In this document: one piece after another, positions 16,991 through 42,257 of the stretch
Layout: the number at the start of each line of letters is the position of its first letter
Numbering within the stretch: position 1 is the first letter of the stretch
Assembly: GCA_030264375.1 (NCBI GenBank)
Contig: JASCQW010000027.1
Span: 39,374,116 to 39,438,115 of the forward strand
Direction: 5' to 3'
Origin: Carcharhinus longimanus
Lineage: Eukaryota
Length of the DNA stretch: 64,000 bases
Made by a program: the position numbers and the translations under genes
The notes under the pieces: generated by a model
What the model was told of the DNA's origin: nothing
What the model saw: the letters and a program-made list of their open reading frames with translations, nothing else
Database searches by the model: none

Positions 16991-18949
16991 TCAATTTCTC
17001 CTTGCTCTGGATGCCTCCACAGGTAAATTTGTTTTTGCATATCTGCAAATTAAATTTTTGCAACCTGTCCTCATAATTTAGCCTGTTTAAGGCTGATATC
17101 GCTGATTAAGTTTTAGCCTTTATTTCTCCCACCTCCTCCAATGAGTTATACTTTCACTGTACCTAACCACCCATCTCAAATCCAACCCAATCAGAATGGT
17201 TATTCTAAACGTAACAATTGCTTTTTCAAATGAATGACTTGTTTGGTCACTTCAGAGAGGATTAAGAGATATCCACAGCGTGGAGCTGAGTTACTATACA
17301 CCACAACAGAGTCTAGTTGACAGATTCAAACATGTGCTAATTTTTTTTAGAGAAGTACACTCTTTTTATATTTCTAAATTGCACAATTTTTAGAGGCATT
17401 TTTAATGTCAATACACTGGTGTCTATTGCATCACGTTGTGCTTTATTATTGGCCTACTCTATATATTTTGCTTAATTTTCCCCATTTTTGATTATTTAAT
17501 TTGTATTTTTATTGTTTTCAAAATGCCTAATATCTGAAAAGTTATTAGCTATCTGCCAATGAATTGTCTTTTATCTGCAGAAACATCCTTTCCAGCAGGG
17601 GTAACTGTGAGTTTTTTGTTCAGTTCTGTTAAAATCTTTGTCAGAAAGAATAAGGAATTGATCGAAGTATAGAAAACAGCAGGATATTGTGTCAGGCATA
17701 TGCTGAGTGAGCAGCCTGAAGGATCAGTGTTAGGGAAGTGATAATTCAAATTTTAATTGTCTTTCATTCAGAAGCTGAGTGCAAACTAGCCAAAATTGCA
17801 GATAACACCAAACAAGAAGAAGCAATTGACTCTAATGAGGTGGCCCAGGAACTATAGAATTATTTTAAAAATGCACAACAGGACAAGTCAATTGGCAGAT
17901 GACATTTAACATGGACAAATGTAAAGTCAGCACTTAGGAAAAAACAGGTACAAATTATTATATAATTGTTTGAAATAACTAAGGATGAATTAGGTCTGGA
18001 TAGACTTGATAATTTATGGTGCAAAATTTTATTCAACAAAAATCAGCTATGAACATGCTAGTATTGCATGCCCTACACTATTTTAAATTAGAATTAAAAC
18101 CTTAATTTTAAACAGAGAAATACATGCATAGAAAGCCCAGAAAGCGTAATAACATTAAGTGAATTTCACCTATCAATGAAGCAAATATAATGCTAACCTA
18201 TGTAGACAAAATAGTAGTCTCGACAGGGATACTGCAAAAAATAGTTGTCTGCTATGGTGAGGAATTTTCTGGCTGGATAAGGGAAGGGATGGATGGCCTT
18301 CCTTAAGTGTTTTTATCTTTTGTTCATTTGGCTGCCACAAATGTTAATAATCTGAATTTTACATTGAAATATTACATAAACGATATGGCACACAAACAGG
18401 ACAGTTAACCCAAACAGTCTATGCTGGTGTTTATGGTTCACACAAGTCATGAATATTGTCTACGGACTACCTACACCTTTTGTTTAAAAGAAAAAAGTAC
18501 GTGGAAACATAAAAAATAATCATTTGTAAACAAAAAAGATTTAATGCTGGCTGTCAGTTGAAAATTATCTAAACAATTCTAATTTCACAGTACATAGAAA
18601 ACAAATTCTATATGACCTTAAAGGAACATGTCTACTATATTGCTTATTTATAAAGGACTAATTGCAATCGTTAATTTTCAGAGTGCAAATGTGCTTCATT
18701 GATTTTCCATGGTAAAAGAGATTCCCCAGAACAGCTGCAATTGTAATTCAGTTGTTCACAATGAAAAAAGTGTCTTGTAATTTATGGAATATAACAGGGT
18801 GTGGAAGGGAATTTCCAGAAAGGGCAATCGCTACTGCATTTCTTATCAAGCTAACTTCTAGCAAGAATGTCAAAGCTGACAGCACTGGTAGTGTTTTCAT
18901 ATTTCTAACCGCCCTCCCCACCCTCAACACCATGGATTTTTTTTGGCAG

Positions 18950-20350
18950 GCGTTCAGGATAATGGTTGAGAATCGCTTCAGGGGCGAGAAGCTGGAGCAA
19001 GAGAGGTGTGGGGAAGGAAAGACGGTCAAATGTAAATACCACGCAAAACAGGTTGTCTCTGGCTGGCAGGCAGCTGCCGGCCCTGGGAACGCACGCGGCT
19101 TGGCGAACCTCGGAACAGTGATGGAGTTCGCCGCACGCGCTGCTCCCTTCCAGCCCCTCGTGCTTGTCGCCTACACCTGTTGGGGCAGCAACACCGTGCC
19201 TGCTCACCCGTTAGCGCGCATGCGGCACAGTCCGCACCCCTCAACACCCGCCACAATCCGCGCGTGCTGAACACATCGACGCACCCCATTCCCATCCACG
19301 CTGCCTCTCCGCTCCACAAACACGCGCATGCGAAACTCATCCCACTCAGGACACCCACGGTCCTCCCCCCCACGTCCTTCTCTACCTGCACCCCACAACC
19401 CGCGCATGCGAGATTCATCATCCCCACTACATCCGCCCCCCCCCCCCCCCAGCCCTGAGCCCAACCAACCTGGTTTATCTCTCCCTTTCTTACACTCCGC
19501 GCATGCGAGATTCTGAACTACTTCGACAACGTCTTCCCCCCCTCGCCCCGGGCCCGTGCTGCCGCCCCCACCTCACAAAATTCGCGCATGCGAGATTCTT
19601 AACTAGCTCGACACCACACCCCCTACCCAATCTGGCTTCCCTGCCCCATCCCTCCCCACAATGAGCGCGTGCGATATTCATGAGTCCTTCGATCATACCC
19701 TCCCCACCTAAACCGGGCTTCCTCTCTCCCCCGCCCCCCCCCCACCTCACCCCGCACCCCCCACCGGCCAGCGCGTGCAGTGGGGCGGGCGCGAGGGCGT
19801 TCCCGGGGAGAACCCGCCGCGATTTGAATCGAGAGGATTCCAGATGTGGGGCAGGTTTTGTGGAATAGGGAGCTGTAGTCAGTCACAACAAGTTACCACC
19901 AACAAATTCTTGAGGGGGATGGGGGTGTGGGTGGTGGGCTGAAAACAAAAAGTGTTACTTGGGATCAGAATCCCCACCCTCGTAACTCCCTCCCGTCGCA
20001 CCATTTTACTAGCTGCTTGAGCCCCACTTTCTCCCCCCTCCTCTAAAGGGGGAGGTGGTGGGAAAGGGGGAGGTGGAGGTGGGGTGGGAGGGGGGGAAAA
20101 CAGTGTCAATTTTTTTTCTCTGGCCGGTGCTGAGGAAAAAGCAGCGCTGACGGATCGACTCCCGCCCAATGGACACCTCCTTCGGGTACGTGTGAAAGCA
20201 ATGGTGTGGAGGCCGGGGGGGGTGGGGGGGCGACAGTTAGCGGCGTCACGTGGCTGCGGGTTTGGGGGGGTTGGTGGGAAAGGGGATGCCCACTCTTTCC
20301 CGGTTCATGGTGGGCATGCAAGGTGGGAAGGAGAGAGACACTCTAAATAA
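18950..20350. promoter_or_regulatory. CpG island / distal promoter-like region
   Basis: high GC and CpG density in an AT-rich background; NRF1-like motifs, GC box 19782-19789, TTTGAA 19823-19828. Confidence 0.75.
19215..19780 (+). repeat. degenerate ~80-105 bp tandem array with conserved CGCGCATGCGAGATTC core
   Basis: cores start at 19215, 19259, 19323, 19401, 19498, 19583, 19664 and 19770. Confidence 0.85.
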
Positions 20351-20467
20351 ACACACATCTCCCTCTCCCCCTCCCTACCCACTACCACCACCATTTTCCT
20401 CCCTCCATCCCACAGATGCCGGCTTTGGGCTGGGGTTGTTGGCACAGCGAGGAAGTCGCACAGCGAG

Positions 20468-20582
20468 GAAGTCTCACAGCACCCGCTTAAAGTCCCAACA
20501 TGTCTGATGAAGGAGCAGCGCTCCGCAAGCTCGTGCTACCAAATTAAACCTGTTGGACTTTAACCTGGCGCTGTGGGACTTC
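20468..20582. mobile_element. Penelope-derived hairpin fragment with hammerhead-like core
   Basis: inverted arms similar to 60081-60115; CTGATGA at 20504. Confidence 0.7.
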
Positions 20583-23279
20583 TGACTGTGCCCCACCCCC
20601 ACAGTGAGAGAGCAGACAGTGTGCGACGGGGTGGAGGGAATTTAATGGGTGATGTGGTTTGCACCATCGGGTTATTGAACTGCTCTTTCCAGCGGGCATT
20701 GGGGGTGGATGGGTGGGTTTTGTTTGACGTTTGTAGAGATCTGTGCATCTTCGTGTTTATTTGTTGATCGTTTACAGAGCCTTATTTATGTCGCGTGTAT
20801 GTATTTACCGTTCCAAGAGATTTATTTCCCTGTAAACAACCGGTTGGTTGAAGTTTGTGTTTTGTTTGCGCTAGTTGTTGACATGCCAGTGCCTGTGTCG
20901 AGATGCACCTTTGGGCATCGGGCATTTGTGACTGACCTGGACCCAAACAAAAAAAAGAAAAATGCTGCTGGAAATCCGATTTTGTTTTTAAACGAGAGAA
21001 AGAGGGAAAATGTTGAAAACCACTCAGCAGGTCAGGCAAGTGGAAAGAGAGAAAGGGAAAAAGTTAAGTTTTCAACTCCAAGACTTATTTTCTTTCATAA
21101 GGACCTGGAAGAAAATGAGAACTGCAACAATTTTCGTCCATTGGTGAAGTATTTATTTACTCATTAGCCCTGCCATTGTTTTTGACAACAATTTTTAATG
21201 CTTTAATCTCCAGAAGCCTGTTGAGTGTTGCTCCAGCATTTTCTGACCCTTTCATTGCAATCCATACTGGAGAAAGAAAAAGCTGTGACAAGAGAGGCAG
21301 GCAGTGACACTGCACCTGGTTAAAGTGACAGATCTGCCTTATTCAAGAAATGTAAACGTTGGATACTATGATATAAAGATTTTTTAAAGCCGCCTTTCCT
21401 GTAAATCAGCTTGGGAAACCTAAGACAGGGTGATTTTCAGAAAAAGAGCATCAGCTGACGGAAATGCAAAGTAACTGGATTATTTTGCACAGGTAAAGGA
21501 AAGGTGCAGATACCTGGAGAAAGGAATTGATGGGACAAATATTACTACTAAAGNNNNNNNNNNNNNNNNNNNNNNNNNNNNNNNNNNNNNNNNNNNNNNN
21601 NNNNNNNNNNNNNNNNNNNNNNNNNNNNNNNNNNNNNNNNNNNNNNNNNNNNNNNNNNNNNNNNNNNNNNNNNNNNNNNNNNNNNNNNNNNNNNNTTGGC
21701 ACGACCAAACAAAAAAAATGCAGGCCGGGACAAGTGTGTTCGTCGAATATTAAAAAATGTTAAAGTTGGTTGAAGGTTCAGAGTCTGCCAAGAACCTAAT
21801 GTGAAGTTATTTTCCCTTCTGAATTTAAGAAATGCAACAAAAAGAAGCCCTAACCAAAAAAGCAAGTGCAGCACGTTGCCACAAATTTTAAATTATAAAC
21901 GGAATGCCGAAGAGATTCCAAATGGTCCCAGACTCAACATGGATCTACACTGAGATATTGACATTTGAAGTAACAAAAAAAACTATTACCATAAATCCAG
22001 AGAAAATAACTTTCTGGGCTGAATTTTGCAGCAATAAATTACAAAGTGACAAGTTAACAGGTATTATAGATTCATGGCAATTAAAAATTAAATGCAAGTT
22101 TACCCGAATTAAGTTGTAAACGCAACAAATTACAGACCTTGCAATATTTTGTTTATTTAAGCATTAAATAGTACAGCATTAATCAGATGGAGTTAAGTAT
22201 ATGGGCAAAACATTTAGGAATTTTAGTTGTGGGGAGACTTAGTTATTTTGAATTTGGTTTAATCTGAAGTTTCTGCATATTCTCTGCAGTCCACCTGTGA
22301 GAAATATGACCCCAAAATCTTGTGTCAAGCGACTCCAAGTGCTTTATAGGTTTATTGTCCCGTTGTATTACACACGTGCCAGGAGTGTGCAGGAAAGAGG
22401 AAGTCTATCACTGCGATCCAAGATCCCAAATTACTGCTTTCACTAAATCTGTAAATCTATTGCTGTGGACAATACATCTAGAAATGTTGCTTTATAGGAT
22501 CTATAACATAAATGGAGATGTTAAGTTTTAATTATAGCAAAACATAACCTAGAATTTTAATCCATGTTTTTTGAATATCACAAGAATGTAGCAAACGTTT
22601 TTATAATTAAGCTTGAATTTCGGAAGCTGCATAGAGGAAAAATATACATTTTGCATTGTTGTTTTTAACACCGATACGTTTGCGAACAAAGGACCCTCGT
22701 TACTCCATATTTAGGTTTTATTGCAAAACTGCAGGTTGCGCCATCTATAGAATAAGCACTCGACTTTTCGTTCAGTCTAAAATGTGTCATATAATCACTT
22801 AAATGTGTAGCCTGACTTTCTTGTAGGTATAAATGTTCATAAAATCATATTTTCTAATAAACCATTTTGTACTCACTTCCAAGAAACAGTAACTGGGACA
22901 TAACTTCCCCCCCCTTCCACTTTTCCTCAAGCAACATTTCACTAATAATCAAACTGTTAAACAAATTTATTGGGTTGTACAACATCTCTGTTTGCGTCTG
23001 ACTTTCTCTCTGCGGGAGAAAGTAATTCTTTTAGAAACAATATGGTAATTGTATAGATTAGCTGCAGGGAACCCCGCGACTGGATGCTGCGAAAGAGCTG
23101 ACAGATGAAGGACAAAAGCACATTATCTTTACTTGTTTACTTTCTAAAACTCGTTGTGGGGGCGGGGGGGGGNNNNNNNNNNTGATTAGTGGGAAGCATG
23201 AACAATGTGGGGGGGGGGGGAGTTGTGGTACCGGACAGAGCGGGGATTGCAGGAAAAAGGCGGGTTTCACCGAGGACCG

Positions 23280-23479
23280 CCAAGTAGTACGCAGTGCGCC
23301 TGCGTACTACTTTGACTCTGCTTTGGGCGCGAGATTTGGCGGGAGGGGAGGGTCCAAGGGCTTTGTTTGTAGGAATCTGTGTTTACAGAGCGTACACTTT
23401 AATCTCAATTTGCTTCCTCCTCGTGTGAGTTTGGGTGATCACTTGCAGCGACACTTCTTCCGCACTCTGAGAGAGACTC
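23280..23479 (+). promoter_or_regulatory. MYB: MYB proximal promoter / 5' UTR
   Basis: E2F-like TTTGGCGGGA 23335-23344 and TGTTTAC 23380-23386; resembles the mammalian MYB TSS region (recalled); lies directly upstream of the ATG. Confidence 0.8.
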
Positions 23480-23502
23480 ATGGCTCGGCGGCCACGGAAT
23501 AG
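23480..23502 (+). CDS. MYB: c-Myb coding exon 1 (MARRPRNS)
   Basis: ATG GCT CGG CGG CCA CGG AAT AG|gtaac; matches the c-Myb N-terminus MARRPRHS; phase-2 donor. Confidence 0.93.
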
Positions 23503-27330: not shown

Positions 27331-28180
27331 NNNNNNNNNNTGATAATAGAGGACATCACTGCTGAATCCAAATTATGACCTCATGTGACATCCATACATA
27401 CACACACCTATGTAAGTTATTAAAAGTCAAGAATAGGAACTTCATCCAAGTTAGATATTCTTCTCTCTACGTAACTATGGGTTCTGAGGTCAATTGGTGG
27501 TTCTTTCACTACCTCAGCCAAGGTCAGCTAACTCATTGGAGATCAGAGTTCTGACTTTGCCTGTATGGCTCAGCTGTGCATTATATGAAGGGTACATTTG
27601 CCTAATGCAGGAATTAAAAAAAGTCATAAATCTTATTTCTTTAGCACTGAAATTTTAAGTGGACAAAAACCTATTAATCTGTAATAAAACCACTTGTATT
27701 CTAGAATTATATGGTCAACTTATTAGGTATGATTGTAAAATATGCTAATGAAGCTTCTTGTGAATGGAAATATACTGCTAACTTAATGTTTTTACTGATC
27801 CATTAAGTGTCTTACACGTGTTAATTCTGAGCCATTCTCTCATTAATAGGATTATTTTGCTATTTGAGAGTATGTTTTAAGTGATCTGGCTATCAAAATA
27901 GAAGTAAACAATTAAAATAAGGATGCATTTAACTGTGAAGTAATTGGATTGTACTATTAACGATTTAATTGTAGTAACTCATGCTTTTCCAGACAGTACT
28001 GAAAAGGTTATTTGGAATATACTTGTGAATGCTCTACTGAACCTAAATATCTGATATTTCCAGATTTTGAATTTGAAAATACAGTAATTGTTTTCCTCTT
28101 TGTTCAACCGTGCAATTTTCTTTGAAAAGAATATGAAAAAAATTATTGCTGCTGAATTTTTAAAAGTATTTTGTTTGTAG

Positions 28181-28298
28181 TTTATACAGTAGTGATGAGG
28201 AAGAAGAAGAGATTGAAATGTTTGATCATGATTATGATGGTCCACAACCAAAGTCTTGTAAACGGCAATTAAGCAAAACCAGGTGGACACGTGAAGAG
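28181..28298 (+). CDS. MYB: c-Myb exon 2 (LYSSDEEEEEIEMFDHDYDGPQPKSCKRQLSKTRWTREE)
   Basis: tttgtag acceptor and gtatgt donor; 118 nt; acidic CK2-site region and start of R1. Confidence 0.97.
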
Positions 28299-39860: not shown

Positions 39861-40674
39861 GTGAGTGACTTTATCAGTTTTGGGGTCTTTGGTTAAAGTC
39901 AGATGTGCATAGCTCATGTTTTTACATAGGATTGCACCTTAAGTGTGGGATTTGAAATTATGGATAATAGATTAGTCAGTGTCACAGGTTTTAAAAAAAT
40001 AGCATTATCAAAATATTTAATTGCTACACTTAATTACTTTATTTGTTAACCTTTAAATACTAACATGGTACATGATGTGAAATTCAAGGTAACAGTGACA
40101 TAAAAGCAAAATTTCTGTGTATGAAAAGTTCATCGTTACAGTTTTCAACATCAATGGGGTTGTAAAACAGGCATTATTAGACTGACTGCTCCTTATATAC
40201 CTCACTGGAAAGGAGAATTGGGTGAGGTGTAGAATAGGCAGCTGATTAGACATCGCTCATTTTGCAACTCTGTCAAAGTTGCATGTTCAACCTTATTAGT
40301 TTGCTTTTTCAGTATCGTGAATCGAGTTGCACTGTTAAACCTTAAAATAAGTTTGATTTGGGGGGGGAAATGTACATAAGCCTTTAATTAATTTTAATAC
40401 ATTCACAGTCAATAGGTAAGATTAGCAGAGGCCAAACTGATTTGGGAAAACAAGTTTATATACAATGCATTGCATTTACGTAGCCTGTATAGATCTTACT
40501 GTGAAAATCTTGGAGGAAGAATTTAAACATTGTTTTTAAGACTGACTTAAGTACAAGTAGTTGAAAAAAGGGTATTCCCAGCAAACATTACCTTGCCTTT
40601 GAAAGCTATAGCATTTAGTTACCCAGGTGGCACTGTTCGCCGTTTATAGCTTCGTGCCTCCCAAATTGTTTCAG

Positions 40675-41037
40675 GATCCATCTACTTGGGGTGATATCAA
40701 CAGTTTCGACTTCCTTGAAGGGGAAGACAACACACCTAGCAAAAATGTTACAGCCAAAATCATGCAGCTTCAGCACAAAGAGAGCAGCGTTTGCCAGTGT
40801 GAAGGACTTACTAACACAAGCCTAAGCAAAAGCATGGTGTGCCAGGGCTCCCCTGCTTCGCTCAGCTCACTCTCTCCTTCAAAGTTCAGCACTCCGTCAA
40901 CTATCCTTCGCCGCAAAAAGAGAGGGCAGCCTAACCAATCAACTAGTAGTGATAGTAATTGCTCCACATTAGCTGACTTCAGCTGCTCTACTCCTAAGCG
41001 TACCCATGTCAAAGGTCTACCCTTCTCTCCCTCGCAG
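40675..41037 (+). CDS. MYB: c-Myb optional exon 9B (9A in mouse/chicken naming), 121 aa (DPSTWGD...KGLPFSPSQ)
   Basis: 363 nt, phase 0/0; ends in LPFSPSQ like the p89 alternative exon. Confidence 0.92.
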
Positions 41038-42257
41038 GTATATGAATAGTAATCAACAGATATTACTAATACTGCAACAGACATGAAATGGTTAACAATT
41101 TAGAAACTAATTCTATGGAACAAATGACTAATCAGTTTTGTATTCACTGATTTGACTATGTATTTTTAACCCACTCACTACTGTCCCTCTGACCACTCTC
41201 TCAGATCAGCACAATGCTAATTAGTTATGCTTTCATTTTTGTGCATTAAAATGCCAACATTTTTCATTGAGTTCTCTAGAACATGATTGGCTTCTCTTTT
41301 ACATTTTGTATTCAGTTTAGTCAAAAGTTGTGTTTCCTGTAACCAAAGCTTGGCCTGTTTTTCTCATTTCCCAAGTACAAAGGTTTCCTATGTTGCAAAT
41401 TCAACACAATTTTTTTTGCATCTTGATGCATTTAACTTGTGTCCTTTTAGCTGAATTATTCTAAGACTGCAATTTTAAATGCTATTATTGAGCTTATTAA
41501 AAAGTAAGGCATGATCACTCAGCTTGCCATTAAAGTTATCGGGATCGGCTATTGGATGCAAAATTTCTGCCTGTCGTAAATATGACCAACAATGTAAGGG
41601 GATGTGTTTACTTTGAGCTTATTGCATTCCTACTCCCTGGAACTTCATTAGAACTCAGCGCATGTCAGGTGGGATAGGTCTGGTGAGAGTATTAGCTGAG
41701 CAATGGGCTGATGTGGGGAGGGTCTAGGGATGTAGACTGAGATCAGGCTGTATCTGTAAGATTTAGGTACAGTTATTTTTAATTTCTAACTAGGCCCCTT
41801 TGTAAATTAGATAACTTCATGACACCCCAGAAAAGTTGTCACAATCAGTATCAGAAGTTCCACTGAACAATGCAAACAAAGATATAGTATCTCTTGCTGA
41901 TCTGTGGATTTTCAGGGCCTATGTTTTCCTCTTTGTTTTAACATAAGGATAACAGATGTTTAAAAGTGAAATGCTTCCAAATTTAAATTCTGAAATTTTA
42001 CATTTCATTAGTATCATCCTGTTACAACCTTTTATTAAAACTCCTGAAAGTCACATTATGAAGTTACTGGAAACAGAACTTTTTTCTCTTAGGTATCATG
42101 TTGTGTTCTGTGATTGCACCTATTAGTAATTTTAATTGTTTGAAAATCATTTCTGTTAGAGGTTAACTTTTTTTTAGCCCTGGCCTCTGCAGATGATACT
42201 TTACACTTCAGTTTTTGGTTGCATTCAGTTCAATCTAATGGCTCTTTTCCTTTTCAG

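Follow-up and report, generated by a model that had tools for sequence, protein, structure and literature searches.

Positions 20169-20185 of the window, which is the whole stretch of 64,000 nucleotides of Carcharhinus longimanus DNA that was analysed (G000:C27:39374116-39438115), very likely are a genuine first coding exon of c-MYB, alternative to the canonical one and predicted to be spliced to exon 2, because the N-terminal peptides of seven other species all map best to its splice donor. Judged from the gene models of other species, transcription and splicing of this exon are very probable in elasmobranchs and probable in C. longimanus itself, and translation probably begins at the ATG at 20169. 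We infer that this MYB gene has two promoters.

Gene identity and exon layout

The gene in the window is identified by its sequence as c-MYB of a shark-type genome, and not as MYBL1 or MYBL2, because of three observations. First, when exon 2 was used as a query, 62 of the 76 matches were chondrichthyan Myb proteins with 95-100% identity, and the exon 2 peptide together with the repeats resembles proteins named Myb. Second, the central LMSTEN activation domain was found at two loci of the genome, namely the MYB gene of the window and a paralog at C61, which is taken as MYBL1. Third, HBS1L is located upstream of MYB on the minus strand in a head-to-head arrangement, and HBS1L-MYB synteny is given in PMC5635590.

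The coding part of canonical exon 1 (23480-23502, plus strand) encodes MARRPRN and two bases of a split Ser codon, and ends at a phase-2 donor (TAG|GTAACA). Exon 2 (28181-28298, plus strand) is common to both first exons and contains a Ser-Ser pair and an internal ATG (28218), which correspond by sequence match to human S11/S12 and human M21, respectively. At the end of intron 1 (28161-28181), a stop is placed seven codons before exon 2 with no ATG between, so that a shark transcript of the human TSS2 type would start at the exon 2 Met (28218). Farther downstream, a 121-residue exon at 40612-41046 is present in isoforms of about 757 residues and explains the gap to those of about 636 residues; we take it to be the known alternative exon 9B of mammalian MYB.

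Anatomy of the candidate exon

The coding part of the candidate exon (20169-20185, plus strand) lies 3.3 kb upstream of exon 1 and 8 kb upstream of exon 2. When we reread the sequence, the in-frame TGA on the 5' side of the ATG (20148-20150, plus strand), the ATG at 20169, the 17 coding bases and the donor GTACGT (CGG|GTACGT, 20186-20191, plus strand) were all as written in the earlier note. From this ATG, the frame stays open through MDTSF and two bases of a split Gly codon up to a GT donor whose phase agrees with that of exon 2, and the predicted intron to exon 2 is 7,995 nt long. The candidate exon and canonical exon 1 indeed share phase 2 and keep the frame when joined to exon 2, and in-silico splicing gave the expected product MDTSFG-LYSSDEEEE, compared with the canonical MARRPRNS-LYSSDEEEE. 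The start context, which had been called moderate, has C at -3 and G at +4; since the canonical ATG belongs to the same Kozak class, this context is no argument against the exon.

When donors were scored with a 9-position donor consensus, the alternative donor matched at 7 of 9 positions, that of canonical exon 1 at 6 of 9, and five internal MYB donors at 6-8. Pairs of an ATG and a phase-2 donor with a match of at least 7/9 occur 17 times within positions 1-28100, and once within the island (18750-20450). Because 17 comparable pairs are found upstream of exon 2, the window sequence alone makes a weak case for the exon.

The neighborhood of the exon contains further features. A pyrimidine tract followed by AG (20028-20048, plus strand) resembles an acceptor site, and it could place the coding exon internally, behind a non-coding leader. 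An out-of-frame upstream ORF of 32 codons (19844-19942, plus strand), with a second ATG at 19919, is relevant only if transcription begins near the candidate CHR described below. Outside the exon and just 3' of the donor, a dispersed-repeat fragment (20460-20600) is of high copy number and contains an internal inverted repeat with arms at 20468-20495 and 20555-20582.

The same N-terminus in other cartilaginous fishes

The protein search was performed with exon 2 alone, so that it was blind to the N-terminus, and the starts of the listed cluster members were read (15 of 35 members for the largest cluster). Among 134 shark-type proteins with exon 2, 82 have the canonical start, 17 carry the candidate exon peptide or a variant of it, 8 begin at the exon 2 Met, and the remaining 27 have another start or a missing one. 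The candidate peptide or a variant is present in 8 of 23 chondrichthyan species (7 without the diverged Narcine), all of them as predicted models; a model with this peptide was absent among the isoforms listed for the other 15 species, and it was seen in 0 of 6 chondrichthyan proteins sourced from Logan. MDTSFG itself is found in Heterodontus francisci (XP_067882328.1), Stegostoma tigrinum (XP_048387880.1) and Chiloscyllium plagiosum (X1-X4), where it sits behind an 89-residue 5' extension. Leucoraja erinacea (XP_055491928.1) and Pristis pectinata (XP_051881186.1) have MDGSFG, and Mobula birostris and M. hypostoma have MEGCRP-MDGTFS. The diverged form AEGSKP-VDGSCC of Narcine bancroftii (XP_069743367.1) has Val in place of Met, and the frame is kept via an upstream ATG. 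Looked up for one species in each of six genera, the seven species apart from Narcine represent five orders, and with Narcine two shark and four batoid orders are represented.

The earlier note had proposed to check conservation in other elasmobranchs. The exact N-terminus joined to exon 2 was obtained in three shark models and close variants in four batoids, which bears out the conservation of the ATG and the frame, as far as NCBI models of other species represent them. Each peptide was then placed on the window by counting the fewest base changes needed to encode it before each GT on the 5' side of exon 2. Among 1,467-1,470 GT sites, the candidate donor came out first for the peptides of all seven species, while it ranked only 14-23 of about 1,467 for the Narcine peptide. 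As a positive control, canonical peptides of gar, zebrafish and bird chose the canonical donor in 3 of 3 cases. Mapping of the 89-residue Chiloscyllium extension onto the island gave a score of 26.0, no better than shuffled controls (26.0 +/- 2.3), and a local likeness of the extension near 19880-19915 was dropped for this reason. Those Narcine bancroftii models that have a long N-terminus fall on the region of the proximal promoter (23214-23283), which suggests a further upstream start or a donor near the proximal promoter in Narcine. Based on these comparisons, it is well supported that the alternative exon predates the shark-ray split.

Here, we need to consider that the exon might be spliced as a non-coding leader, with ribosomes mostly starting at 28218 to give an N-truncated Myb like the human TSS2 product. 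The proteins that begin at the exon 2 Met (8/134), the Val of Narcine at the position of the candidate Met, the absence of a purine at -3 of ATG 20169 and the two out-of-frame upstream ATGs would agree with such a leader. We nevertheless consider it unlikely, as the candidate Met is retained in 7 of 8 species, the Narcine frame is preserved through its upstream ATG, and the canonical ATG shares the Kozak class of 20169. In addition, when compared with Chiloscyllium, the six coding residues are identical at 6/6 positions, whereas the six in-frame codons before them agree at 1/6. In batoid-shark pairs, only 2-3 of the last six residues are identical and the contrast between inside and before is small.

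The exon could also be used in some relatives and be silent or vestigial in C. longimanus, and several well-annotated sharks are without a candidate-peptide model among the isoforms listed. This is very unlikely, however, because the ATG, frame, donor and peptide are intact in C. longimanus and identical to three other sharks, and the CpG island is kept. Contigs of a close relative, taken from non-RNA sequencing runs, span the exon and the candidate CHR. The piece containing the exon shows 10 differences in 403 positions and the downstream intron 29 in 949 (p = 0.72); the identity is about 94% for the island and about 97.5% for the exon piece, the latter being no better than that of the following intron. 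Among the differences listed (to 19553), 2 fall on the 40 core positions of the first four array copies, compared with 40 in about 620 bases overall.

A further explanation is that the models reflect functionless low-level splicing noise of a GC-rich region, or annotation carried from one genome to another. The 27 of 134 proteins with other odd or missing starts indicate that the models contain noise, 17 ATG-donor pairs arise upstream by chance, and NCBI annotation also draws on protein alignments (PMC12605758). By contrast, the exon is found in five or six orders, where it carries changes specific to lineages and has 5' extensions that differ, and copied annotation would not give such a pattern. 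The other odd starts do not recur across genera except among close kin. In the NCBI pipeline, as described for the buffalo annotation, alternative variants need full support by one long alignment or by the RNA-seq of one sample (PMC5737279), and the shark and ray models therefore probably rest on transcripts. Noise or carried annotation is thus a highly improbable origin of the shared N-terminus.

The distal CpG island and its motifs

The exon is located in a distal CpG island (18750-20250), a single-copy sequence in the genome and likely an upstream MYB promoter, which is the sole island passing our scan in the readable sequence from the HBS1L promoter region to MYB exon 1. Five copies of CGCGCATGCG and one degenerate copy, spaced 78-108 bp, form an NRF1-like array at 19215-19694 (plus strand), and the array motif matches the palindrome in PMC3874167 at 9 of 10 positions. 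GCGCATGCG has 5 copies in the island compared with 0.01 expected in shuffles, and the 15-mer array unit has three occurrences in the genome, all at the island. Six GC boxes (2.3 expected) and two CCAAT motifs (4.1 expected) were counted, and no TATA box was found in the island. We infer that the island is a TATA-less promoter activated via the NRF1-like array; such arrays may simply mark CpG promoters in the shark genome.

A GC-rich pentamer, a 4-nt spacer and TTTGAA (19823-19828) form a candidate CDE/CHR at 19814-19828 (plus strand), 346 nt upstream of the ATG. The earlier note had relied on a motif array and a CHR upstream of the exon. The five-copy array held up in our analysis, while the CHR hexamer TTTGAA is present without enrichment, with 1 found and 0.78 expected in shuffles, which is the chance level. 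As for the CDE, CCGCC at 19814 fits only a pattern written post hoc, and the other CDE pattern tried gave 0 matches. The upstream activator of CDE/CHR promoters is represented by the five NRF1-like motifs. PLK4, whose CDE/CHR promoter is activated by NRF1/CRE (PMC3874167), is likewise TATA-less and GC-rich, and in it, too, NRF1-like sites precede a GC-rich element that is separated from TTTGAA by a 4-nt spacer. The island differs from PLK4 in that its single TTTGAA is expected by chance and its CHR is a putative one. To count as functional, a CHR should be conserved, lie close to the start site (within about 200 bp) and bind DREAM (PMC4176359). It seems rather unlikely, though possible, that the candidate CHR adds late-cell-cycle control by DREAM/MMB. 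An E2F/CCAAT site conserved over the ATG was rejected as the cause of the conservation, because it is not enriched and the Chiloscyllium and Narcine peptides are incompatible with an E2F core.

The island might instead be the promoter of the head-to-head HBS1L gene, or a mere enhancer, with the mini-exon being incidental. HBS1L is indeed upstream of the island on the minus strand, its first coding exon was not found in the sequence searched, and NRF1-like arrays suit housekeeping promoters. However, a separate CpG-rich stretch with four NRF1-like motifs is located about 8 kb upstream of HBS1L exon 2, and window positions 1-30000 contain no match to an HBS1L first exon. This stretch is likely the HBS1L promoter region (L020:9560-9900; G000:C27, about 39.3037 Mb); its tandem array of four GCGCGTGCG motifs, about 89 kb from the MYB island, resembles the array there. 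Since HBS1L has a CpG-rich NRF1-like array of its own, the MYB island is not needed for HBS1L, and we regard an HBS1L promoter or mere enhancer as extremely improbable.

The proximal promoter and MYBL1

The proximal promoter contains a 20-bp E2F-type element (23325-23344, plus strand), which is identical in the MYBL1 promoter and resembles the human MYB E2F/MAZ site. In 2.68 Gb it occurs exactly twice, in the MYB proximal promoter and at G000:C61:66239292-66239311 (minus strand). The E2F/MAZ site of human MYB TSS1 (PMC5622404) is matched by the shark proximal promoter at 23325-23350, indicating that canonical exon 1 corresponds to human exon 1 and that human TSS1 is the counterpart of the proximal promoter, not of the distal one. 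No human counterpart of the distal promoter turned up in our searches.

Since the 20-bp element is common to MYBL1 and the proximal promoter and has a human match, the proximal promoter and the basic exon 1 would be the ancestral pair. The distal promoter, by comparison, does not look ancestral, and its unit seems to be an addition in c-MYB. We also considered the distal promoter as the ancestral A-/B-Myb cell-cycle promoter, and rejected this because the MYBL1 promoter matches the proximal one instead. The MYBL1 promoter region shows one island in 60 kb and is partly unreadable. According to PMC5635590, human Myb paralogs share no non-coding element; the 20-bp element may be a paralog-conserved element that is visible in a slow-evolving genome.

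Age of the exon

Spotted gar models (for example XP_015202209) start with MNASRSHCSFG, and this peptide ranks 1 of 1,467 at the candidate donor, where it needs 10 changes in 32 bases against a mean of 18.6, and also 1 of 163 among GC-rich sites; if the last three residues are taken off, the rank drops to 70 of 1,467. The gar start represents a spliced exon, because its final Gly is impossible by read-through of the intron acceptor, and its first rank has a chance of roughly 3% given that 49 other non-canonical starts were compared. The coelacanth start MDCSRDCSFFS (XP_014354077), which was retrieved with the gar query, ranks 7 and ends in Ser, a residue that acceptor read-through also yields. 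From these peptides, an origin of the exon in jawed vertebrates can be proposed tentatively, somewhat short of being probable.

Other starts were rejected as the same exon. Sturgeon MNNSQDCFFC is unsupported with a rank of 71 of 1,468, as are the short gar MDS and arowana MDT starts in the donor ranking, and the exon is absent from the listed models of bichir, reedfish, paddlefish, bowfin, eels, tarpon and cyprinids. Tetrapod N-termini ending in FCS, LCS or FSS reached a best rank of 140 of 1,467 (among the best 120 of 1,055 matches), and they would come from translation through the end of intron 1 rather than from the candidate exon. Birds, turtles and crocodilians (P0233-P0285) show a recurring 13-residue start with an SFCS or FFSS ending. 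This suggests that TSS2-like transcripts whose ATG lies in the last part of intron 1, and which would keep S11/S12, are widespread in sauropsids.

A broader history can be drawn, which is doubtful as a whole. c-MYB would have gained a second promoter and coding exon after the split from MYBL1 and before the divergence of sharks and bony fishes, and kept them in sharks, rays, gar and perhaps coelacanth. NRF1-driven and CHR-gated, this unit would supply a Myb without the basic tail in dividing or germ-line cells, and would be lost or unannotated in teleosts and tetrapods.

Proposed working of the alternative exon

We suggest that transcription would begin in the CpG island and that 20185 would be joined to 28181, with canonical exon 1 skipped. 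The predicted product is a full-length c-Myb, two residues shorter, with MDTSFG (net -1) instead of MARRPRNS (net +3), which would retain the acidic exon 2 segment, the Ser pair and all DNA-binding repeats. The Ser pair is a CK2 site in human Myb (PMC7016764). The NRF1-like array would let MYB be expressed independently of the proximal E2F/MAZ-type promoter, and, if transcription starts near the CHR, the 32-codon upstream ORF would dampen translation. The alternative isoform is likely minor or tissue-limited. Because the peptide varies in Mobula and Narcine while the frame stays, selection has more likely acted on the second promoter than on the six residues. The exon would thus mainly serve as another on-switch for MYB, more likely than as a source of new activity of the protein. 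c-Myb is reported to be high in the gonads of most gnathostomes, the testes of elephant shark and gar being exceptions (PMC5635590), and a gonadal role of the alternative isoform is possible but unsupported. We found nothing on a MYB upstream promoter among the multiciliated-cell papers listed, and no usable paper on the role of the lost basic MARRPRNS residues.

Comparison with known systems

Several NCBI isoforms (XP_067882328.1, XP_048387880.1, XP_043542121.1, XP_055491928.1, XP_051881186.1 and those of Mobula) have nearly the same N-terminus and the same exon 2 peptide as the predicted product. They are automatic models, some with upstream in-frame extensions that are blocked by the TGA in C. 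longimanus. We found no description of a shared exon or promoter for these shark and ray isoforms, and no published account of fishes with a MYB first exon farther upstream, in a search that mainly covered the main text of open-access articles, with few older papers on the c-myb 5' end. A look-up of terms in the Myb-evolution papers PMC5635590 and PMC3575645 likewise gave no such exon in fishes. The alternative isoform is thus already in automatic annotations and apparently undescribed in print.

The finding is modest, in that alternative first exons are common, the change is from eight to six residues, and the isoform is already annotated. Both the dosage of MYB and its N-terminus are important in blood formation and in cancer. 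TSS2, the one alternative MYB promoter that is well known, is located in an intron, truncates the protein and is associated with tumours. If our reading is true, a normal, spliced upstream first exon in sharks and rays would mean that switching of promoter and N-terminus is old in c-MYB, and the alternative exon would be a natural test of the function of the conserved basic first residues. Should the exons of gar and coelacanth be orthologous, there would be reason to seek a remnant upstream of tetrapod MYB.

One of the closest published systems is TSS2 of human and mouse MYB with its delta-N Myb (PMC7016764, PMC3389162), in which a second promoter likewise bypasses exon 1 and alters the N-terminus, and loss of the first 20 Myb residues altered the target genes. 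TSS2 is an intron 1 promoter directly ahead of exon 2, and its product lacks 20 residues, S11/S12 among them. In contrast, the shark exon is placed 3.3 kb upstream of exon 1, is predicted to be spliced, has its own ATG and keeps the Ser pair. As read here, the shark distal promoter has neither of the two features that define TSS2, namely the intronic position and the start at M21 without S11/S12, although both systems would provide c-MYB with a second promoter and a changed N-terminus.
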